Assembly: GCA_030054295.1 (NCBI GenBank) | Contig: JASGCE010000009.1 | Span: 6,212-30,211 of the forward strand | Direction: 5' to 3' | Origin: Minisyncoccota bacterium | GTDB lineage: Bacteria; Pseudomonadota; Alphaproteobacteria; Elsterales; Elsteraceae | Length of the DNA: 24,000 bases | Shown: piece by piece, positions 3,393-19,849 of the stretch | How positions within the stretch are numbered: the stretch's first letter is position 1 | How the letters are laid out: every line of letters starts with the position of its first letter | Translations under genes and position numbers: made by a program | Notes under the pieces: model-generated | Told to the model about the DNA's origin: nothing | Database searches by the model: none | Seen by the model: only the letters and a program-made list of their open reading frames with translations

Positions 3393-3466
3393 GGGATAAT
3401 TTTTGGGTGTGGTGGTGCAGGGAATTCTCCAGGGCATTTTATAAATTATCGCAGCAGTATATGAAA

Positions 3467-3645
3467 CCTCCCCTTCTTTAGAAGGGGAGGATAGAAAACC
3501 TTAGCGAAGCCGAAGGCGAGCGTTAGGTTTTCTTGGAGGGGTTGCTATTTCTTTATATTCAACATGTTAACCAACCCCTCCAAGTCTCGCTAGGCAGCAA
3601 GCTGCCAAGCTGCGACTATCCTCCCCTTCCTGGGGAAGGGGAGGT
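3467..3645. repeat. Nested-hairpin repeat, copy A (two inverted units around a 27-nt spacer)
   Basis: The left unit is CCTCCCCTTC-ttta-GAAGGGGAGG, atag, an internal hairpin, then CTTGGAGGGGTTG (3467-3544). The spacer is 3545-3571. The right unit is CAACCCCTCCAAG, an internal GGCAGC-aa-GCTGCC hairpin, ctat, then CCTCCCCTTCC-tgg-GGAAGGGGAGG (3572-3644). Copy A is roughly 90 percent identical by hand alignment to 10988-11169. Confidence 0.85.
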
Positions 3646-4985: not shown

Positions 4986-5042
4986 ATTGGCTCTCCTCCT
5001 TGATTTGGTTGGTTTGGTGAAATTATCGCTTTATCCTTTAGT

Positions 5043-5277
5043 AAGGTCTGAAAAACTCCAAATTTATAGTGCAACCCCTCCAAGCAAACCTAAATCTTGA
5101 CTTCGTCTTCGCTAAGGTTTGCTATCCTCCCCTTCTAAAGAAGGGGAGGTGTAAGCTATTGTAATCATTGCTTCTTTATCCCCCCTTCTTCAGAAGGGGG
5201 GAATAGTCGACCCGTCAGCGAATGCTGACATTCGTCAGCGGGTGAAGTTTACTTCTTAGTGAGACTAAGGGGGGTTG
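5043..5277. repeat. Nested-hairpin repeat, copy B (leader motif plus unit 1 forward plus unit 2 reverse)
   Basis: The leader AAGGTCTGAAAAA is at 5043-5055. Unit 1 (CAACCCCTCCAAG...GAAGGGGAGG) is at 5072-5149. Unit 2 in reverse orientation (TCCCCCCTTC-ttca-GAAGGGGGGA...CTTAGTGAGACTAAGGGGGGTTG) is at 5179-5277. The reverse complement of 5072-5277 matches 10860-11065 with about 9 mismatches in 206 nt by hand alignment. Confidence 0.9.
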
Positions 5278-6602
5278 TCTGACTGTATTTGTAAAGCGAC
5301 TTTATCAGACCCTCCTTTAGTAATATCCATCGGCAATGACTTGATCCCGCCAATAAAATTAGACCTGAGATAGCGATGGGGTTCGGTCAGGTCCATCGCG
5401 CCAACTCGGGCGATCCATTCTTGCAGAAACACCTTGACCTCCAGCCGCGCCAACCACATGCCGAGGCAGACATGGACTCCGCCCTGACCAAAGGCAATGT
5501 GCGGATTGGGATTTCGGCTGAGGTTAATCTCGTGCGGATCTTCAAATACCGTCTCGTCGCGGTTGCCCGAGACAAACCACAGAATCACCTTATCGCCTTT
5601 TTTGATGGTCTTACCGTGAAGCACCATGTCGCGCTTGGCCGTGCGTCGAAAATGCATGGTGGGAGAGGCCCAGCGAATCATCTCGTCGGCTGCCAGGGCC
5701 CAGACCTCGCTGTCATTACCGCCGTTACGCGCCGCCTCCTGTAACTGTTTTACCAGGGCCGGTCGGCTGGCCAGAGCAAAGAGAGTCGCCGCAATCGAAT
5801 AGCGCGTCGTGTCATTGCCCGCCGCAACCAGCAGACAAAAGAAATTCCTAAATTCCTGAACACTGATCTGATTGCCATTTTCGTCGGGCTGCAGGACCAG
5901 GCTTAGGACTCCCTCGGTGTCGCCAATCCGTTGCTTCTCGGCCATCAGTTTTTGGGCATAGTCAAACAGTTCAATCCCGGCCGGGGAACGGAAGGGCATC
6001 AGGCGATAGTCATCGGTATCGGTTTGATCCAGCACATGTTTGGTGAATTCAGGGTCGGTATTGGCAATCAGTTGATCGCCCTTCTCGACCAGCCATTCAA
6101 AGTCTTCATGCTTGGCCCCCAATATTTGCCCCAGAACCCGCATCGGAATTTGCCGCGCGACCTGTTTGGTGGCATCGATCTTTTGTTCCTTGAGGGCCTT
6201 TTGAATCACATCGATACAGATCTCGCGAATCTGGTTCTCATATTCCAAGACCACCGGTCGAGAGAAGGCCTTGCTGACAATCATCCTCAGGCGGGAATGT
6301 TCGGGCGGGTCTGTTTCTTGGAAGGTGCGCCGCGCCAGATATTCCTCCTCGGTCTGGTCTTCCATGCGAATGCCATGGGCTGAACTATAGTCCTGATATT
6401 CGCGGTTAATGGCCAGAATATCGCTATGGCGGGTAATTGACCAAAAGCCTTTTCCCTTGCCATCAAGGCCTGGCATCTCCTGCCAATAGACCGGGTCGTC
6501 GCGGCGCAGTTTGGCAAAGAAGTTAAAGGGCACGCCATGGATAAAACTATCATGGGATGCGAGATCAATCTCACCCTGATCGCTTGGTGTAAAACCTGTC
6601 AT
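5265..6602 (-). CDS. Cytochrome P450 monooxygenase
   Basis: 445-aa ORF with the I-helix AAGNDTTR, the ExxR motif (EMIRW) and the heme-thiolate loop FGQGGVHVCLG. No ferredoxin or ferredoxin reductase gene is present in the window. Confidence 0.9.
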   Translation of the reverse strand: MTGFTPSDQGEIDLASHDSFIHGVPFNFFAKLRRDDPVYWQEMPGLDGKGKGFWSITRHSDILAINREYQDYSSAHGIRMEDQTEEEYLARRTFQETDPPEHSRLRMIVSKAFSRPVVLEYENQIREICIDVIQKALKEQKIDATKQVARQIPMRVLGQILGAKHEDFEWLVEKGDQLIANTDPEFTKHVLDQTDTDDYRLMPFRSPAGIELFDYAQKLMAEKQRIGDTEGVLSLVLQPDENGNQISVQEFRNFFCLLVAAGNDTTRYSIAATLFALASRPALVKQLQEAARNGGNDSEVWALAADEMIRWASPTMHFRRTAKRDMVLHGKTIKKGDKVILWFVSGNRDETVFEDPHEINLSRNPNPHIAFGQGGVHVCLGMWLARLEVKVFLQEWIARVGAMDLTEPHRYLRSNFIGGIKSLPMDITKGGSDKVALQIQSDNPP

Positions 6603-10679: not shown

Positions 10680-10810
10680 TTATCCCCCCCTTTATGGCAT
10701 TTGTTTCTTTGTTTTGAACTCAGTCCCGATCGCTTTTAAAAATCGTTCGACATCGTATAGTTCCATCGTAAAATGCCTATGTCAAGGAATAATTTTTTGG
10801 ATTTATGCAT

Positions 10811-11169
10811 TGTTCACTTGAGAAAGGTCTGAAAAAGTGATTTTTTAATGACAATCGGGCAACCCCCCTTAGTCTCACTAAGCAGCAAGCTGCATCCGCT
10901 GACGCATGTCAGCATTCGCTGACGGGTCGACTATTCCCCCCTTCTGAAGAAGGGGGGATAAAGTAGCAATGATTACAATAGCTTACACCTCCCCTTCTTT
11001 AGAAGGGGAGGATAGCAAACCTTAGCGAAGACGAAGTCGAGCTTTAGGTTTGCTTGGAGGGGTTGGTTTTTGTTTATAATCAACAGAGTAACCAACCCCT
11101 CCAAGTCTCGCTAGGCAGCAAGCTGCCAAGCTGCGACTATCCTCCCCTTCCTAAAGCAGGAAGGGGAGG
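10811..11169. repeat. Nested-hairpin repeat, copy C (most complete: leader plus unit 2 plus unit 1a reverse plus unit 1b)
   Basis: The leader TGTTCACTTGAGAAAGGTCTGAAAAA is at 10811-10836. Unit 2 forward is at 10860-10959, unit 1a reverse at 10988-11065, a 27-nt spacer follows, and unit 1b forward is at 11093-11169. The left part is the inverted copy of B and the right part is a direct copy of A. Confidence 0.9.
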
Positions 11170-11206
11170 TGAATTGATTTTATAACAGTTTGTCATCAGT
11201 CTGAAA

Positions 11207-12706
11207 TCAATCGATCTGGTTTTTACCGAGCTCACGATAGGCACTCGGATTGCGTTTTGCCAAGATCGAGCCAATGATAAAGCCAAAAACCGCCGCAGCC
11301 GGCACCGATAAAGGCAAGAGATAGGCCATAACCACCGTATAGGGTTTAGCAGGATCCGCCCCGATCAAAATGTCGAAGTTGCGCGAGACCAGAACCGCAA
11401 TCATTGTCATCAATACCCCAGCAAAAACTGGCATGACCGACATGGTGAAGAACTCCTTGCCCTGATCCGACATTCTTAAACTATAGGAAGATATGGCGAA
11501 GGAGACCAATGCCATAATGCTGATAATCGCCAAGGTTCCCGTATTGGTCATCCAGGTAAACATCCCCAGCACCGGGTCAATACCCGACAGAGCAAAAAGC
11601 GCGACAAAGAGGATTGAGATAATGGTTTGCATTATCGAACTCTTATGGGGGCTTTGGTGAATCTCGTGGGTGTGGCCAAGATGGCTGGGCAGCAAACCCT
11701 CTCTCCCCAAAACATAAAAATAGCGCGAGGTCGCATTGTGAAAAGCCAGCAAGGCCGCAAAGAGACTCGAGACAAACAGAAGCTGGATCGGCAGGGTCAA
11801 CCAACTACCGGCATATTTGTCGGTCAGACTATAGATAAAGAGCGTCGGGTCGGGAACGCCATCCGGAGTCTTGAGTCCGGCGATGGTCTCAACGAGTCGT
11901 TCGGCCCCCGCACCCTCGACCATTAACCAGGTGGTGACGGTGTAAAAGATTCCAATCGCCAGCACCGCAGCATAGGTCGCGCGGGGAACGGTTTTTTTCG
12001 GCTCCCTGGCCTCCTCCGAATAGATGGTCGTCGATTCAAAACCCATGAAGGAGGCAAAACAGAGCAGGAACCCCAAAATCGGCGTCCCGCTCAACAGGGC
12101 ATGAAGGCTGAAGCTGGTCATACCAATGCCGTTACCACTGGCTCCACCCTTACCCACAATCAACAGGTCGAGGATAAAGACGGCCAGATATTCCAAAATC
12201 ACCAACAGGGTCAAGATCTTCATCGATAGTTCGATCTTACGATAGCCCATAATACTGATGAGAAGCACACAAAAACCAGCATAGAGATACCAGGGCAAAT
12301 AGAGGCCGAATAGTGCCCCGATGGTTCCCTCAGTCACCGCACCAAAGAGTCCATAGAGTCCAATCTGCATCGTAATATAGGCCAGCATCGCCGTATAGGC
12401 CGTGGCGGCTCCAATCCGACCGTTAAAGCCCTGAGAAGCAAAGGCATAAAACGATCCAGCATTGTTAATATATCGGGCTATTCGCGTATAGCCGACCGAA
12501 AAAACCAGCAGCAATAGCGTAATCAGCAAAAAGGCAAAGGGAACCCCGGCCCCATTACCTAGCAACATGCCAACCGGCGTGCCACCAGCAATCCCGGTCA
12601 AGGGAGCCGCCGCCGAGATCACAAAAAAAGTAATCGCCGCTACCCCAAGCGAACCTTGGCGCAGACGATTTTTAGATTTTTGCGGGTTTGATTCTGATTC
12701 AGTCAT
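11207..12706 (-). CDS. APC-superfamily amino acid/amine permease
   Basis: 499-aa, highly hydrophobic ORF with about 12 TM segments judged by eye. An AGGAGG Shine-Dalgarno sequence lies upstream. The composition and length are typical of APC permeases. Confidence 0.8.
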   Translation of the reverse strand: MTESESNPQKSKNRLRQGSLGVAAITFFVISAAAPLTGIAGGTPVGMLLGNGAGVPFAFLLITLLLLVFSVGYTRIARYINNAGSFYAFASQGFNGRIGAATAYTAMLAYITMQIGLYGLFGAVTEGTIGALFGLYLPWYLYAGFCVLLISIMGYRKIELSMKILTLLVILEYLAVFILDLLIVGKGGASGNGIGMTSFSLHALLSGTPILGFLLCFASFMGFESTTIYSEEAREPKKTVPRATYAAVLAIGIFYTVTTWLMVEGAGAERLVETIAGLKTPDGVPDPTLFIYSLTDKYAGSWLTLPIQLLFVSSLFAALLAFHNATSRYFYVLGREGLLPSHLGHTHEIHQSPHKSSIMQTIISILFVALFALSGIDPVLGMFTWMTNTGTLAIISIMALVSFAISSYSLRMSDQGKEFFTMSVMPVFAGVLMTMIAVLVSRNFDILIGADPAKPYTVVMAYLLPLSVPAAAVFGFIIGSILAKRNPSAYRELGKNQID

Positions 12707-12998
12707 GGTTTCCTCCTGTAAGTGAAGATTTTTATGAGAATGGCTTATCTAACCATAGTTCTGGTGCGAAGATCAGCAACCCCTGCCTTGCCATAACACC
12801 TTGATAGGAGGGATTATAGATGGATTATTGATAGTTTAAGGATCGACAGTACTGTTCGTTCTCGAATGATCCACCAATTAATTTAATTTTACAAGATTTT
12901 TTTTGCAATCTCTGAAGCCTCAGCCTATTTTAGCCAATTGATGAGACAGACGCTTGTATAGTCTATAGTAAACCATCTTGACCCGGTTGGTAGTCACC

Positions 12999-13487
12999 AT
13001 GTCGATTAAACCCACTGCCGAGATTCTCGGCGAACAGAAGGTTGCCTCCCTTCCCATCAACCGCGAGGCCATGGCCCTGGTCTCCAACCTGCACCGCGCC
13101 TCGAGTCTGATTCGCCAGCATTTTGAAGCCCTGGTTTTAAGCACCAATGGACTCCATTGGTCGGCCTTTGTGACTCTCTGGTGTTTGTGGATTTTTGGCG
13201 AATTGCCGACCCACCGACTCTCGCAAGAGGTCGGGATTGCCAAAAGCAGCCTATCGTCGATTTTGAATGACCTCGAGAAACGCGGGTTTTTAGTCCGCCG
13301 CACCCCACCCGAAGAAAGGCGGCAATGCCTAGTGCAACTGACCGCCAAGGGCGAGCAGCTATTGTCCGATATATTCCCCCGCTTTAACGAGGAGGAGGCA
13401 GCAATTCTGGTGGGTTTGACCCCCTCCGCCATGGCCGTGACGACCAATCTGCTGAGGGATTTAATTGCCAAACTGGATGAGGAATGA
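12999..13487 (+). CDS. MarR-family transcriptional regulator
   Basis: 162 aa from the ATG at 12999 (the track uses a TTG at 12978). The winged-helix region is LSQEVGIAKSSLSSILNDLEKRGFLVRRTPPEERRQCLVQLTAKGEQLL. The gene is divergent from the permease. Confidence 0.8.
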   Translation: MSIKPTAEILGEQKVASLPINREAMALVSNLHRASSLIRQHFEALVLSTNGLHWSAFVTLWCLWIFGELPTHRLSQEVGIAKSSLSSILNDLEKRGFLVRRTPPEERRQCLVQLTAKGEQLLSDIFPRFNEEEAAILVGLTPSAMAVTTNLLRDLIAKLDEE

Positions 13488-13552
13488 GGGGAGGAGGGAA
13501 TGTTAAATCTTATGAAAACCCCTCATCGCGTTACGAAGTAAGGCGATCCAGC

Positions 13553-13650
13553 GGGGGAGTCGAACGAAGTGAGACGGGGGCGTCATCCCCCACTTTTATT
13601 CTCCGTTAACCTCAGATTTCAAAATTATGTTCAGATTTCTCAAGTGAACA
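13553..13650. repeat. Degenerate, internally deleted copy D of the repeat family (inverted relative to copy C)
   Basis: 13636-13650 is an exact 15-nt reverse-complement match to TGTTCACTTGAGAAA at 10811-10825, followed by TCTGAA. 13553-13580 (GGGGGAGTCGAACGAAGTGAGACGGGGG) resembles the GGGGGGAATAGTCGAC...CTTAGTGAGACTAAGGGGGG ends of unit 2, with the internal hairpins missing. Confidence 0.45.
13576..13600 (+). terminator. Possible weak intrinsic terminator after marR
   Basis: GGGGG-cgtcat-CCCCC followed by ACTTTTATT, about 90 nt after the marR stop. The stem is short and lies inside repeat copy D. Confidence 0.3.
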
Positions 13651-13658
13651 GAGTATAA

Positions 13659-14417
13659 CTACCCCAGCAGATCACAGCCGAGAAACCGCCGACCCTGAGC
13701 CATCGCCGCCGCCATCACCGAAAAACTTCCCGCCGCCGGATCAATCACCAGATCCCCCGGATTAGTCACCGCCTCGATCAACTGCTTCTGCAATTCAACC
13801 GGCTTAGAATGACTGTGGCTGCGATCGGTAATCTTTTCATCCCACACATCCGGAATATTATGCAAACACCATACCCCCTTAGCCCGCACCGGAGACTTCT
13901 GAAAAATCACCAAATATTCCGCCGTCCGCCGCGTCCGATAACCCATGCCAATCCGCTTCTTATTCCAAGTCACCATATCGACCAGATTGAGTTCGGTGCC
14001 AGCCATCAAAGACTCCAACCCACTGCAAACAATAAACTTATCAACCCACAGCATGAGATGCCCCTGCGGCGTTAGTACCCGCTCAATCTCGCTGAGGAAC
14101 TCGGCAATAATATCCTCCGGCATCTGCGGCAAACTGGCGCGATGCTTCTGCCGCGCCCCCTCATTACCATAGGCCTGCTTGTCGAGCACCGTCCGATATT
14201 GCGGATCAAAAAACACCAGCGGCACAGTCTTGTCCTCGACCCGCGCCAACAGCTCCAAACCATTCATCTGCTGCCGCTGATTGATCGCCAAACCCTCAAT
14301 CCCCTTAAAAACCGGCGCCTTGGCCGTGCGAAGCTTGGAATAGACCGACTTGATATTATCAGAAGTAACCGTCTTATTGGGTGCCGCCGCCGCTGCTATA
14401 ATTTGAGGCATCTTCAT
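13659..14417 (-). CDS. Site-specific DNA methyltransferase, N6-adenine/N4-cytosine class (beta-type motif order)
   Basis: 252-aa ORF. Motif IV, VFFDPQY (a DPPY variant), comes first. The AdoMet-binding region HSKPVELQKQLIEAVTNPGDLVIDPAAGSFS lies near the C-terminus. G+C resembles the host genes. Confidence 0.85.
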   Translation of the reverse strand: MKMPQIIAAAAAPNKTVTSDNIKSVYSKLRTAKAPVFKGIEGLAINQRQQMNGLELLARVEDKTVPLVFFDPQYRTVLDKQAYGNEGARQKHRASLPQMPEDIIAEFLSEIERVLTPQGHLMLWVDKFIVCSGLESLMAGTELNLVDMVTWNKKRIGMGYRTRRTAEYLVIFQKSPVRAKGVWCLHNIPDVWDEKITDRSHSHSKPVELQKQLIEAVTNPGDLVIDPAAGSFSVMAAAMAQGRRFLGCDLLG

Positions 14418-14424
14418 ATCCTGC

Positions 14425-14497
14425 TGTAACTGTGACCAAGTATCTGTAAAAAATTATTACAGAATAACCAGTTACAAGCAATAGTTAATGTTAACTA
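14425..14497. promoter_or_regulatory. Cluster of nested and perfect palindromes between the two methyltransferase genes
   Basis: TGTAACTG (14425-14432) pairs with CAGTTACA (14469-14476). This encloses CTGTAA (14444-14449) paired with TTACAG (14457-14462). TAGTTAA-tg-TTAACTA follows at 14482-14497. Function is unknown; candidates are a terminator for the C5-MTase gene and/or an operator-promoter for the downstream MTase. Confidence 0.3.
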
Positions 14498-14512
14498 CCG
14501 AGCATTATCTTA

Positions 14513-15637
14513 TTAGCCTTTGATTATATTGGATAAAATTGAATCAGCCAAGGCTTGAGATAACAGAGGCGGCACCGCATTACCAATTTGTAAATTGCGA
14601 TCTCCCCGCGAACCATAGAATTGATAGCTGTCAGGAAAGGATTGCAGCCTCGCCCCCTCCCGCGTCGTCAAGGGACGCGCCACCCTGGGGTGAATACAGC
14701 GGGAGGATGATGGAGTGCTAAGGTTACGGGTGATGGTCGGTGAAGGCCGATCCCACCACAGCCGCGAATAGGTGTTTTTAAAACCCGAACTCGGGCGAAG
14801 TTCAGGCGGCAGGTCTTCAGGCGAGCCTCCATCGGGCAAGGCCTCCATCAAACGAATGAGCTGCGGATTGTTCTTTGGCGCATTGTGATCCGATAGTTTA
14901 GTCGGGGCCGATTCGCGCATTTTTATTTGATATGGGTTTTGGGCTGCGGTTCGATAATGGTCAGACTCCTCGCCCGAAGCAATCAGCGGCAAATCGCCAA
15001 TGGCATCGGATAATGTCAAATAGGAAAGTTTCTTAGTGTCAAATAGGGATTCTGATTTTTGCGACTCGCCATGGGTAGAATCGGGATAGGTAAATTGGGT
15101 ATTTAATTTTGAACCGACGATTATAAGTCTTTCTCGGATCTGCGGGACACCGTAATCGGCGGCATTAAGGATTCTATACTGTACCTTGTAACCAATCGAT
15201 TCAAATAATTCAATAATATTTGTCAGAAGTTTTCCTTGATCCATCGACTCCAAACCCTTTACATTCTCGAAAATAAAGAGTTTAGGGTTAATCTCGGTAA
15301 GTAATCGAAAATACTGGTTAAATAATCGAGCCCTTGGATCATCTGAATTTCGCTTGCCAACGGTAGAAAAGGCCTGACAGGGCGGCCCGCCGATAATGAC
15401 GTCAATCTCACCCGATTTGATGCCTAAATCTTGGGACAGATCCTCAGCCGAAAACTCGGCAATATCCCTTTGATAAATCGGAACGGACGGGTGATTGAGA
15501 CTATAGGCCTTGGCCATGGCGGGCAAAATTTCATTCGCCGCGACGATTTTAAAATTCTGATTCTGACTGAAACCATAACTCAGCCCACCAACACCAGCAA
15601 AAAGATCGAGGAGTTTGATTTTTGAATCGGTTGGCAT
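14513..15637 (-). CDS. DNA (cytosine-5) methyltransferase
   Basis: 374-aa ORF with the full m5C-MTase motif set: I LDLFAGVGGLSYGF, IV GGPPCQAFS, VI FIFENVKGL, VIII QIRERLIIVG, IX-like RPLTTREGARLQSFPD and X GNAVPPLL. The gene is AT-rich relative to its neighbours. Confidence 0.95.
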   Translation of the reverse strand: MPTDSKIKLLDLFAGVGGLSYGFSQNQNFKIVAANEILPAMAKAYSLNHPSVPIYQRDIAEFSAEDLSQDLGIKSGEIDVIIGGPPCQAFSTVGKRNSDDPRARLFNQYFRLLTEINPKLFIFENVKGLESMDQGKLLTNIIELFESIGYKVQYRILNAADYGVPQIRERLIIVGSKLNTQFTYPDSTHGESQKSESLFDTKKLSYLTLSDAIGDLPLIASGEESDHYRTAAQNPYQIKMRESAPTKLSDHNAPKNNPQLIRLMEALPDGGSPEDLPPELRPSSGFKNTYSRLWWDRPSPTITRNLSTPSSSRCIHPRVARPLTTREGARLQSFPDSYQFYGSRGDRNLQIGNAVPPLLSQALADSILSNIIKG

Positions 15638-15640
15638 AAT

Positions 15641-16423
15641 TTAATACTCGAATTTAATGTCTGTATATTGTGGTGGCGGTTCCGTAATTTTCCAAATGAA
15701 GAAATTCTGGTCGATGTTAAAAACGGTCTGTCCCTCCATTTGCTGGCGGGAAATCCAATGCATATTGGATTCTTCGATTTGGTTTAATTTTAAAAAAGCA
15801 ACTTGACCATTATAAAGATCAAAATGAATAGCGATGGTTTCAATTCCATCTTCCCGATCTAGTCGTTTAGCCTCGATTACCTTATGTTGTTTGATGTCAT
15901 TGATTCCCGTAAAACCAGTTTGCATTTCTATATGGACACGATTTTTATGGTTTAACTCTATCTCAATATCTGCCTTTGGCGTTCGTTTAAATGTATCGAG
16001 ACTGGAAAAATCATCATCCCCAACAAAAGAAACTTGGCTGAAATCGACATCAAAAATTTGGCATAGGGATTTACGGAAATAGTTGGCAAAAATATATCCG
16101 CGCATCCAAGAGAAATAGACCTGCTCGGGTCGCCGACCTTGATTGTTCAGTCTTGGCAAAAGATGATTATTGACAATAATTTCATAGGGTCGATTGATAT
16201 AGTCTGCGATAAAACCATCTAATGAATCAGGTCTAAGTTCCTGAATAATAACGCGATTAATGACACGAATAGACTCTGCCAATCTCTCATTCAGTTTAGC
16301 AATAAAATGCATATCCACTTCGGCAACAATGTCCTTGGCACCGAAGAAATTCTTGACTGCCGATTGATTGGTAAATCCGAGTTGACGGCGATAGTCTTGA
16401 AAATAGTCAGTGCCAATTAACAT
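15641..16423 (-). CDS. Uncharacterised 260-aa protein, candidate Type II restriction endonuclease partner of the C5 MTase
   Basis: Its stop lies 3 nt upstream of the MTase start on the same strand, and it shares the same AT-rich composition. I recognise no family signature. The segment PKADIEIELNHKNRVHIEMQ could be a PD-(D/E)XK-like D...ExQ variant, but that is speculative. Confidence 0.45.
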   Translation of the reverse strand: MLIGTDYFQDYRRQLGFTNQSAVKNFFGAKDIVAEVDMHFIAKLNERLAESIRVINRVIIQELRPDSLDGFIADYINRPYEIIVNNHLLPRLNNQGRRPEQVYFSWMRGYIFANYFRKSLCQIFDVDFSQVSFVGDDDFSSLDTFKRTPKADIEIELNHKNRVHIEMQTGFTGINDIKQHKVIEAKRLDREDGIETIAIHFDLYNGQVAFLKLNQIEESNMHWISRQQMEGQTVFNIDQNFFIWKITEPPPQYTDIKFEY

Positions 16424-17889: not shown

Positions 17890-18825
17890 ATGGCAGAAGA
17901 ATTTAGCTTCAGTATTAGCAAGTTAGAAGACTACCCTGAAGGAGTACTCAATATTTCGAGCGATAGAATTCAAGCCTATTTGATTCCAAGAGAACGACTT
18001 GAAGAAACTGCAAAAATCATAAATGACTTACGAGAAAGTAAGTCTTGGGTCTATTGTCTTTCGAACCAGAATTGCTTCGATTCAAGAGGACAAGAACTCC
18101 AGGGTTACATTGGTAAGACTGATGATAGTTTTATTACACGCATGAAAACTCACGCTAACAGTAGCCGTAAAGATTTTTGGTCACAGACAATTGGCTTTAC
18201 GAGCTCAAACGGTAATCTCACGAGCCATCACTCAGCTGTTCTTGAGTACAATTTTTATAAACTAGCAAAATCCCGCAGCCGTTGGAAAATTACAAACGAT
18301 AAGAGTCCAAGTGAAATCACACCAAACTCCCACGACACTGTTCGGGTTAATGTCTATAAACAGGAAATTTTGCGAGTTTTTAGAATTCTAGGGTGGAATC
18401 TGTTTGAGGAAAAAATAGCAGATGAAGAAATAAATGCTATAGCGGATGTCGGTAACATTCTTGCGACAGAGGACCTGCAAGATAGCAATTCCATTAAATC
18501 GGAAATGTGGAAAGAATTTGAAAAATTAAAGTTTAAAAACCTCACAAACCAGGAATTGATTTTACTCTGTGAAAAACACAAATGGAATAAAAACACTGTA
18601 CGCAGAGAATATCCTGCCTTTAAACGAGCCAACGGCATGGAGGTCAAAGAGTTTCGTTTATATCCAGTTAAGGTCAATGGAACCCCTTATTCATCGGTTC
18701 GCGCCGCGATGAATGAGCTCGGGATTGAGGGGCATTCGCAGCAGATAAGGGACAAACTCAAAGAATTAAATATCTATGAGATTGTTTCCGATGGCATTCA
18801 ATATAGATTTGAACTTGATGAATAA
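17890..18825 (+). CDS. GIY-YIG nuclease-like protein (free-standing homing-endonuclease-like)
   Basis: 311-aa ORF. The N-terminal half reads WVYCLSNQ...GYIGKTDDSFITRMKTHANSSRKDFW...AVLEYNFYKLA, which fits the GIY...YIG...R...H...E pattern of GIY-YIG nucleases. The C-terminal VNGTPYSSVRAAMNELGIEGHSQQIRDKLKE looks like a small HTH module. The gene is strongly AT-rich compared with its flanks. The assignment is by motif only. Confidence 0.5.
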   Translation: MAEEFSFSISKLEDYPEGVLNISSDRIQAYLIPRERLEETAKIINDLRESKSWVYCLSNQNCFDSRGQELQGYIGKTDDSFITRMKTHANSSRKDFWSQTIGFTSSNGNLTSHHSAVLEYNFYKLAKSRSRWKITNDKSPSEITPNSHDTVRVNVYKQEILRVFRILGWNLFEEKIADEEINAIADVGNILATEDLQDSNSIKSEMWKEFEKLKFKNLTNQELILLCEKHKWNKNTVRREYPAFKRANGMEVKEFRLYPVKVNGTPYSSVRAAMNELGIEGHSQQIRDKLKELNIYEIVSDGIQYRFELDE

Positions 18826-19849
18826 TCAGCCCCCCTTCACCCCTGACTATCCCTTTGGTGCTGCGCCGGCGATTGGCTCGGTGACTGAACCTGTCACGGG
18901 AATCACCTGGTTCAGGTTGCCGCTGCCCTTTGCCCTCAACCATATTAACTGCTGGATATTTGGCGCGGCAAATGACTGTGCGATTATCGATGCTGGCCAT
19001 TATGACGAGGCGACCAAATCGATTTGGCAACCGCAGATTGCTCGGCGAAAAATCAACCAGATTGTCATTACCCATTACCATCCCGACCATCTTGGCTGTG
19101 GCGAGTGGCTGCAATCGCTCACGGGTGCTGCGGCCTATATGTCGCGCGAGGAACATCGGATTGCCGCCGAGACCCGCGACATGTCGGATGAGCTCGAGGC
19201 GCAACATCGGTTAAAATTCTTCGCCCTGCATGGACTGTCGGGAAAGGCCCTGGCCGAGCAACAACACTTTAGTTTCGGCTATGCCATGTCGGTGCCGCAC
19301 CTGCCGCGCGAGCCACACTGGCTGGTTGATGGCGACACCATCCCCCTCGGCGGCGCGGACTGGCGCGTCCTTTCTGGCGGCGGCCACAGTAATGACCAGA
19401 CCATGCTTTATGAGTCGCGGCGCAGGATTCTGCTGGCGGCGGATCAGGTTTTGCCATCCATCTCGCCCAATATTTCGGTCTGGTTTGACGCGCCGGATGC
19501 TGACCCGCTGGCCGAGTTTTTTAAGTCTCTGGCGCGTTTAAGGGCCGAGATTCCCGCCGATGCCCTGGTGCTGCCCTCGCACGGTCGGCCCTTTTATGGG
19601 CTGCACGGTCGGATTGATCAGTTGGTTGCGCACCATCAGGATCGGCTGGAACTGCTGCTGCGGCTGATGACCGCGCCGGTCACAGCGGCGGAATCTTTGA
19701 CCCCGCTTTTTGAACGGGAACTCGATGATTTTCAAATCAGTTTTGCCATGGGCGAGGCATTGGCGCACCTTAACCATCTGGTGACTCTGGGCCTGGCCGA
19801 ACGGCAGGAGTTAAATGGAGTTATGCGATTTGCGAAATCGAGCCGTTAA
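18818..19849 (+). CDS. MBL-fold metallo-hydrolase
   Basis: 343 aa from the ATG at 18818 (MNNQPPF...). It carries the HxHxDH motif THYHPDHLG and later GGGHS. The start overlaps the stop of the upstream ORF in the sequence ATGAATAA. Confidence 0.85.
   Translation: MNNQPPFTPDYPFGAAPAIGSVTEPVTGITWFRLPLPFALNHINCWIFGAANDCAIIDAGHYDEATKSIWQPQIARRKINQIVITHYHPDHLGCGEWLQSLTGAAAYMSREEHRIAAETRDMSDELEAQHRLKFFALHGLSGKALAEQQHFSFGYAMSVPHLPREPHWLVDGDTIPLGGADWRVLSGGGHSNDQTMLYESRRRILLAADQVLPSISPNISVWFDAPDADPLAEFFKSLARLRAEIPADALVLPSHGRPFYGLHGRIDQLVAHHQDRLELLLRLMTAPVTAAESLTPLFERELDDFQISFAMGEALAHLNHLVTLGLAERQELNGVMRFAKSSR

Follow-up and report, generated by a model that had tools for sequence, protein, structure and literature searches.

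The window analysed here, a 24,000-nt stretch of contig JASGCE010000009.1, carries yidC, yidD, rnpA, a glutamine-synthetase-like gene, a cytochrome P450 gene and genes of the homoprotocatechuate pathway, a content that looks alphaproteobacterial, together with an amino-acid permease gene, a MarR-family regulator gene, two DNA methyltransferase genes, ilvE, holC, pepA and an MCP gene. Most of these genes lie on the minus strand. An earlier reading made from the letters alone (the sequence-only reading) had described transcription as uniformly minus-strand; however, the plus strand encodes the MarR-family gene (12978-13487) and another gene (18776-19849). Dispersed among the genes are three copies (A, B and C) of a hairpin-rich repeat family, which is the subject of this study. 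The sequence-only reading had noticed this family and compared it to repetitive extragenic palindromes (REPs), an observation that was partly confirmed as a whole and is revised below.

The repeat family is real and occurs far above chance. A direct repeat of 177 nt (3455-3631 against 10976-11152) showed 90% identity, and an inverted repeat of 250 nt (5072-5321 against 10816-11065) showed 90% complementarity. The G/C hairpin pattern was found 5 times in the window, compared to approximately 0 occurrences expected from shuffled sequences, and the head motif 7 times, compared to 0.17 expected. The three copies comprise seven units of 73-99 nt, at which a head motif (CAACCCCTCCAAG or CAACCCCCCTTAG) is followed by a variable internal hairpin, the tetranucleotide CTAT and a perfect G/C hairpin of 10-12 bp, exactly the layout that had been described before. 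The internal hairpin sets three unit types, referred to as X, Y and Z. Copy A is arranged as X(-)-spacer-Y(+), copy B as X(+)-spacer-Z(-) and copy C as Z(+)-X(-)-Y(+); copy A corresponds to the right two thirds of copy C, and copy B is the reverse complement of its left two thirds. Head-to-head unit pairs sit around 27-nt spacers, as the sequence-only reading had also noted. What it had overlooked are the outer terminal inverted repeats (TIRs) and the target-site duplication (TSD). The identified features are the following:

3467-3644: copy A, a head-to-head doublet of X(-), 27-nt spacer and Y(+), bounded exactly by two G/C hairpins
5037-5040: left TSD of copy B, TTTA
5041-5315: copy B, a complete 275-bp element and putative MITE (miniature inverted-repeat transposable element), with left TIR, X(+), 29-nt spacer, Z(-) and right TIR; delimited by the TIR matches, the flanks and an empty orthologous site in a related contig (L119)
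5041-5058, plus strand: left TIR of copy B, GTAAGGTCTGAAAAACTC (z = 6.5 against the TIR consensus)
5072-5149, plus strand: unit X of copy B, with head CAACCCCTCCAAG, internal hairpin CAAACCT..AGGTTTG, CTAT and G/C hairpin
5179-5277, minus strand: unit Z of copy B, which has the head CAACCCCCCTTAG, a long internal region and the hairpin TCCCCCCTTC/GAAGGGGGGA
5298-5315, minus strand: right TIR of copy B, minus-strand reading GGAGGGTCTGATAAAGTC (z = 5.9)
5316-5319: right TSD of copy B, TTTA
5265-6602, minus strand: cytochrome P450 gene, of which copy B supplies the final 16 codons and the stop codon
10822-11169: copy C, a composite of left TIR, Z(+), 29-nt spacer, X(-), 27-nt spacer and Y(+), with no recognisable right TIR
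10822-10839, plus strand: left TIR of copy C, GAAAGGTCTGAAAAAGTG, with TTGA just before it (z = 6.7)
10860-10958, plus strand: unit Z of copy C
10988-11065, minus strand: unit X of copy C
11093-11169, plus strand: unit Y of copy C, its internal hairpin with a conserved A.A mismatch
13620-13658, minus strand: terminal fragment resembling the left end of copy C (10802-10844; score 37, shuffle maximum 25)

Of the four copies claimed earlier, three were recovered (3467-3644, 5041-5315 and 10822-11169), while in the fourth only the fragment at 13620-13658 was significant and the remainder (13500-13619) was not (p approximately 0.06-0.09). The likeness between this fragment and the left end of copy C runs about 20 nt beyond the presumed TIR (10802-10821 against 13639-13658; TTAT.C..TGTTCACTTGA). 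Nor are all copies intergenic, as had been stated, since copy B takes in the final 16 codons of the P450 open reading frame (ORF) together with its stop codon (5265-5267), which falls in the head of unit Z.

The copies differ from each other in a mosaic manner. The X unit of copy C shows 2 differences from that of copy B and 5 from that of copy A, and the spacers of A and C are only about 70% alike, although their Y units match in head, internal hairpin and CTAT; the two Y units differ in the loop of the G/C hairpin. Judged from these likenesses, copy C looks like a chimera, or recombinant, whose left part is of the B type and whose right part is of the A type, and the units behave as exchangeable modules. 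All four compensatory pair changes reported by the sequence-only reading were found (11016/11052, C-G to A-T; 11031/11037, A-T to C-G; 10883/10892, C-G to A-T; 10886/10889, C-G to T-A). On the other hand, its statement that differences are concentrated in paired positions did not hold, as 18 of the 51 substitutions fall at predicted paired positions and 33 at unpaired ones, although 45-67% of the compared length is paired.

A sign of movement was found at the P450 gene. The window's P450 has a 100% identical counterpart in NCBI, a protein of a metagenome-assembled genome (MAG) labelled Candidatus Pacebacteria, and its next-best matches come from an ENA contig (ERZ21742452 contig_61, referred to as L119; 87%) and from a 'Symbiobacter' MAG (69%). 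Copy B is absent from the orthologous site in L119, where 28 nt separate the P450 stop from the next gene start compared to 280 nt in the window; the 275-bp copy B makes up the difference. When copy B and one TTTA were removed in silico, the C-terminus of the P450 became ...SLPMDITKG*, a length which is canonical in 8 of 9 aligned homologs, the exception being P0002 (the 87% relative), which has an unrelated extension of its own. The insertion adds 15 residues to the C-terminus of the P450 in the window (GSDKVALQIQSDNPP, 5265-5319).

The 'Symbiobacter' contigs (labelled Candidatus Symbiobacter sp. MAG09, hereafter MAG09) were found among the matches listed when reference genomes were scanned for the hairpin pattern. 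The genus 'Candidatus Symbiobacter' belongs to the Betaproteobacteria, but MAG09 is a relative whatever its label, because it shares with the window both the gene order LigB-FAH-ADC-P450 and a 69% identical P450. A spread of the family from Alpha- to Betaproteobacteria was therefore withdrawn. The best named P450 homologs belong to Hypericibacter and Dongia (both Rhodospirillales), the locus L004 encodes an ATP12 chaperone, and the Logan sample SRR23378604 holds both the organism of the window and MAG09. Going by gene content and similarity, we treated the three genomes as members of a single uncultured lineage of Alphaproteobacteria whose labels are unreliable.

The family occurs at many unrelated loci across these three related genomes, from which 34 units were collected. 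MAG09 units consist of a head CAACCCCCCCAAG, a hairpin, CTAT and then C7TTC-TAAA-GAAG7, and their internal hairpins are recognisably homologous to those of the window. In L119 a third variant with heads CAACCCCACCAAG is abundant, and its first 800 nt (1-800) show a three-level nesting, with two clean insertions into one outer doublet. The first insert is a doublet MITE (376-644, TSD TTAG) within an internal hairpin of the outer doublet, while the second, at 85-327 (TSD CTTG), is a MITE with a different body and IS5-type ends in the loop of the outer element's G/C hairpin. Deleting both inserts restores an intact outer element.

The ends of the elements point to the insertion sequence (IS) IS5. 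An inverted repeat of 18 bp, GGAAGGTCTGAATAAGTC, delimits the MAG09 doublets (the element ends read GGAAGGTCTGAA[T/C]AAGTC) and matches Escherichia coli IS5 at 16/18 positions; the ends of E. coli IS5A in the K-12 record are GGAAGGTGCGAATAAGCG and GGAAGGTGCGAACAAGTC. The window TIRs read G[GT]A[AG]GGTCTGA[AT]AAA[CG]TC over 18 bp, and the three window ends (5041, 5315 and 10822) matched the consensus of the MAG09 ends significantly compared to shuffled sequences (z = 5.9-6.7). Among the 4 nt outside 59 ends, TTAA was found 15 times, CTAA and TTAG 10 times each, TTTA 6, TAAA 5 and CTTA 4 times; a strict YTAR was present at 35 of the 59 flanks, the remainder being mostly TTTA, TAAA or CTTA. An identical tetranucleotide flanked the paired ends of 5 out of 6 elements, including copy B of the window (TTTA/TTTA). 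The target of IS5 is 5'-YTAR-3', with a 4-bp duplication (PMC5009759).

The complete elements measured 244-275 bp and had no InsH homolog inside. A full 1.16-kb IS was, however, identified in two IMG/VR loci, L112 (902-2064) and L115 (5493-6654), when viral contigs were scanned for the end sequence; the DNA that holds it is Chromobacterium-like. Its ends are GGAAGGTCTGAACAAGTC and GGAAGGTCTGAACAACCT, of which GGAAGGTCTGAACAAGTC is exactly shared with the TIR of the elements, and it is flanked by the duplications TTAG/TTAG and CTTG/CTTG. Its ORF showed 57% identity to InsH (E = 1e-123) and carries DDE_Tnp_1; among the best 120 homologs of the L112 transposase, the closest proteins are named IS5 family transposases from Chromobacterium. 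Another IMG/VR contig (L113, 7514-7602) has an 89-bp MITE with the same IS5-type ends and a CTAA duplication. Scans of viral contigs for whole units and for the TIR variants of the window gave nothing useful. At least one other MITE family with IS5-type ends, whose body starts ACTTTTTTGCCAAAAG, is present in MAG09 (e.g., L015 2898-3100 and L038 181-480).

Since IS5-type TIRs are combined with 4-bp TSDs at YTAR-like sites and with a copy that is absent from the orthologous site, the repeats are very probably non-autonomous DNA transposons, namely type II MITEs of the IS5 group, which depend on a DDE transposase and are not REP doublets (REPINs) of the HUH type moved by REP-associated tyrosine transposases (RAYTs). 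A complete element of about 245-275 bp has hairpin modules as its interior and not a decayed transposase gene, and the usual arrangement is two modules, inverted, around an AT-rich spacer. An IS5-family DDE transposase, supplied in trans, would bind both terminal repeats and cut out or copy the element, which would then be inserted at a YTAR/TWWA tetranucleotide by a 4-bp staggered cut and flanked by the resulting duplication; we infer that the transposase acting in this lineage is of the IS5 family.

The hairpins themselves are maintained, as indicated by the covariation of their stems. The repeat region folds far better than shuffled sequences (z = -11.4 as DNA and -10.4 as RNA). For covariation, the 34 units (25 distinct) were compared at 16 stem pairs, of which nine form the base of the internal hairpin and seven the outer part of the G/C hairpin. 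Standard pairs filled 89% of the stem cells compared to 74.7% in shuffles, both sides had changed in 11 of the 16 pairs, and the covariation score of 0.35 (0.115 in shuffles) was reached by none of 500 shuffles, with slid controls at 0.15 or below; these values are to be read with the caveats that the copies are related by descent and that templated repair can also keep palindromes symmetrical. Series such as AAAAGCT/AGCTTTT, AAAACCT/AGGTTTT, AAACTCT/AGAGTTT and AAACCCT/AGGGTTT represent compensatory changes inside a single hairpin type. In the Y-type internal hairpin (11106-11136 and 3585-3615, and the Y-type units of MAG09), an A.A mismatch is kept at one and the same place in the stem, both in the window and in MAG09, and the pairs beside it covary (GCTA-GGCAGC compared to GCTA-AGCTGC). 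Other stems are chimeric and mismatched (e.g., TTTCGCT...AGCTCAA), which indicates recombination between variants. The earlier claim of maintained stem complementarity therefore stands on a larger set of units, and the family is a dispersed, mobile-looking and modular one with stems kept complementary; that part of the earlier interpretation is retained, while mobilisation by a RAYT gives way, in view of the TIRs, TSDs and empty site, to an IS5-type MITE.

CTAT precedes the G/C hairpin in 30/34 units, the others having CTGT or CTAC, and across the 34 units the head type tracks the type of the G/C hairpin (CCCCTCC with CCTCCCC, CCCCCCTT with TCCCCCCTT, and C7 with C7), except that the CCCCACC heads of L119 and MAG09 carry CCTCCCC-type hairpins. 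A head and a hairpin of the CCCCTCC type cannot pair in antiparallel orientation. The AT-rich central spacer of 12 out of 20 head-to-head doublets (e.g., L017 367-405) has an exact match to WATCARNNNNTTR, which resembles a site for integration host factor (IHF), compared to 0.17 expected; the window spacers at 3545-3571 and 11066-11092 are one mismatch away from it. Our best guess is that the hairpins are kept since they fold the element, either in DNA or in transcripts of either strand. In the related copies, hairpin folding and the IHF-like bend site in the central spacer would draw the ends together, and perhaps insertions are also better tolerated because the hairpins serve as stable 3' stem-loops.

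Several observations weigh against assigning the family to IS5-group MITEs. Searches of the window, of 136 kb of MAG09 and of L119 revealed no IS5-family transposase, and none of the best 120 homologs of the L112 transposase is labelled as this lineage. The TIRs of the window are diverged, with about 13/18 positions matching E. coli IS5. Neither end of copy A, nor the right end of copy C, has a detectable TIR or TSD, although their bodies are 90-100% like other copies, and copy A and the right part of C stop exactly at G/C hairpins, as REP doublets would. The orientation of the units relative to the TIRs is opposite in the two genomes, with the heads pointing outward in the window and the hairpins outward in MAG09, which needs a rearrangement. 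In addition, the likeness between copy C and 13620-13658 continues for about 20 nt outside the presumed TIR. The simplest explanation for the copies without TIRs (copy A and the right part of C) would be that they are truncated or recombined derivatives.

A simpler form of the unit was detected outside the lineage. Among the matches listed, a head-like C or G run was found within 22 nt of the G/C hairpin in 31/75 cases, compared to approximately 1 expected, with hosts from Calditrichaeota, Planctomycetota, Ignavibacteria/Chlorobi and unclassified MAGs. This minimal unit (a head-like C run, 0-4 nt or CTAT, and then a TCCCCCCTTC-N4-GAAGGGGGGA hairpin) is present in L006, L007, L008, L021, L027, L041, L072 and others, as well as in L101-L110. 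A metagenome scan with CTAT and the hairpin yielded only a different, simpler family in Ga0163209, at which CAACCCCCCTT-CTAT-TCCCCCCTTC-N4-GAAGGGGGGA lies in repeats bounded by another inverted repeat, CACCTGTCCAAAATGGGTT, and not by IS5-type ends. The resemblance may reflect homology or convergence, or else the head-CTAT-G/C-hairpin unit may be more than passive cargo, namely a portable functional cassette taken up more than once by different MITE families, although we regard this last reading as unlikely. If portable, the cassette could possibly serve as a site for a host factor or transposase accessory, as a bidirectional insulator or 3'-end stabiliser, or as the substrate of a hairpin-specific enzyme; the last of these, if true, would also explain the copies that have no TIR.

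The similar motif in other phyla, within elements that have different ends, would also fit a REP- or REPIN-like system, at which the G/C hairpin with CTAT is cleaved as single-stranded DNA by a RAYT or another HUH Y1 transposase, the inverted doublets are the mobile unit, and the IS5-type ends belong to separate MITEs that captured or flank them. Such a system would account for the conserved tetranucleotide adjoining a perfect G/C hairpin in 34/34 units, for the inverted doublets, and for copy A and the right part of copy C, which stop at hairpins with no TIR. However, IS5-type TIRs and 4-bp duplications mark the exact limits of copy B and of the doublets in MAG09 and L119, all of which are cleanly excised in reconstructions. 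The tetranucleotide is CTAT, and not the GTAG that is typical of REPs. The sequence-only reading, which had likened the family to REP, BIME (bacterial interspersed mosaic element) or REPIN elements moved by a RAYT, was right that the window has no transposase or RAYT gene; a tblastn search with E. coli RayT, of limited sensitivity, revealed no RayT homolog in the window and 120 loci (747 kb) either, the single weak match being a HemN-like radical SAM protein. Taken together with the TIRs and duplications, these results redirect the interpretation to IS5-type MITEs and make a RAYT-driven system very unlikely, the probability that is left to it coming mainly from the copies with no TIR.

The stable predicted folds and the strong stem covariation could instead be read as those of a structured cis-acting RNA (terminators, stabilisers of mRNA 3' ends or small RNAs) that is selected by the host and spread by recombination. 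One hairpin is in line with this: the outermost G/C hairpin of copy A lies on the minus strand (3490-3467) downstream of the glutamine-synthetase-like gene and has a T-rich tail, TTTCATAT. It is, however, the only one of the 7 G/C hairpins with such a tail; terminator-like sites were not enriched (14 compared to 12.5 expected), and the units lie in both orientations relative to transcription. Wobble pairs were almost absent (3/400 cells), which speaks for complementarity of both strands (DNA, or transcripts in either orientation) more than for one RNA strand with a function. Rfam 15 gave no match at the gathering score in the window or in 20 related loci, and an E-value search of 10780-11210 returned sub-threshold matches at chance level only. 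Since the TSDs, the empty site and the nested insertions indicate transposition, there is only a slight chance that RNA function is the primary explanation, but it can still hold as a secondary, exapted role. A promoter-like site is located at 3465-3436 (minus strand), after the outer hairpin of copy A and upstream of rnpA-yidD-yidC.

Local duplication of intergenic DNA, whether segmental or by gene conversion and without a mobility of its own, would explain the mosaic identity (matching Y units of A and C with spacers about 70% alike) and the chimeric stems in MAG09, but it is hardly tenable given the many unrelated loci in three genomes, the precise insertion boundaries with 4-bp duplications and the empty orthologous site in a relative, the TSD and empty site having already largely refuted it. 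Integron attC sites were rejected as well, since the motif orientation is GTTG...CAAC instead of RYYYAAC...GTTRRRY and no integrase was present.

As for known systems, the family resembles E. coli IS5 (IS5A/insH) in its TIRs, which start GGAAGGT and continue ..GAA[T/C]AAGTC (16/18 for the MAG09 ends), in the 4-bp duplication at YTAR-like sites and in the existence of a full IS with an identical end and an InsH-like DDE transposase. It differs from IS5 in having no transposase gene and an interior of hairpin modules unrelated to the IS5 sequence, in the window ends (approximately 13/18) and in targets that include TTTA and TAAA besides strict YTAR.

With REP, BIME and REPIN elements it shares G/C-rich extragenic palindromes adjacent to a conserved tetranucleotide, inverted doublets with a short spacer and a mosaic of modules. 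BIME-1 carries an IHF site in its spacer, and an IHF-like site lies in the spacer of the related copies here. In contrast to those elements, the present family has TIRs and TSDs, no RAYT that we could find, CTAT instead of GTAG, and units that are 73-99 nt long and contain a head motif and an additional internal hairpin. The resemblance to BIMEs thus survives as an analogy only, in the unit mosaic, the IHF-like site and the truncated copies that resemble REP doublets.

Type II MITEs have only their TIRs in common with an IS, MITEs are known to insert into one another, and some carry IHF sites, which is proven for the Correia elements of Neisseria; truncated copies of QMITE2 from Coxiella that have no TIR resemble REPs (PMC10969869). 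Like the Correia, ERIC, RUP and QMITE2 elements, the family described here is small, TIR-bounded and multi-copy, is predicted to give stably folded transcripts and extends a host ORF in frame (PMC10969869). These elements differ from it in their TIR sequences, transposase families and TSDs (TA in Correia and 7-9 bp in QMITE2), and none of the four was described with a unit of head, hairpin, CTAT and G/C hairpin. BOX elements of Streptococcus pneumoniae are also made of few unit types in variable number and order, and cluster or nest with other MITEs (PMC10969869), but their sequences are unrelated, the host is Gram-positive and the modules are not G/C hairpins paired with CTAT. A literature search with the motif strings returned unrelated eukaryotic matches only. 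The family is a previously uncatalogued one of a well-known kind of element, and what distinguishes it is the modular interior with compensating stems.

Read as IS5-group MITEs, the repeats would represent a family that expanded within a lineage of uncultured Alphaproteobacteria, a testable reading that replaces the tempting one of REPs and RAYTs. The elements break assemblies, as many MAG09 contigs end in them, and can mislead binning and annotation; here the labels read Pacebacteria for the source MAG and Symbiobacter for its relative, while the genes look Rhodospirillales-like. A type II MITE with exchangeable, compensating hairpins would also be a good system for studying selection on the interior of a non-autonomous transposon.

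Elsewhere in the window, an ORF of 311 aa at 17890-18825 had no family match. A stretch of low GC content (13659-16423; 0.40-0.42 compared to approximately 0.55) encodes an N6/N4 methyltransferase, a Dcm-type methyltransferase and an unannotated ORF of 260 aa, and is probably an acquired restriction-modification island; its edge adjoins the MITE-end fragment at 13620-13658. Downstream of the P450 gene of MAG09 (L120, 4130-4392), an unrelated repeat was identified, which consists of short tandem units resembling GGTAAGAG followed by repeated GGGAGCGTCATTACCCGCCGCAAAAAAGGGGCG blocks.

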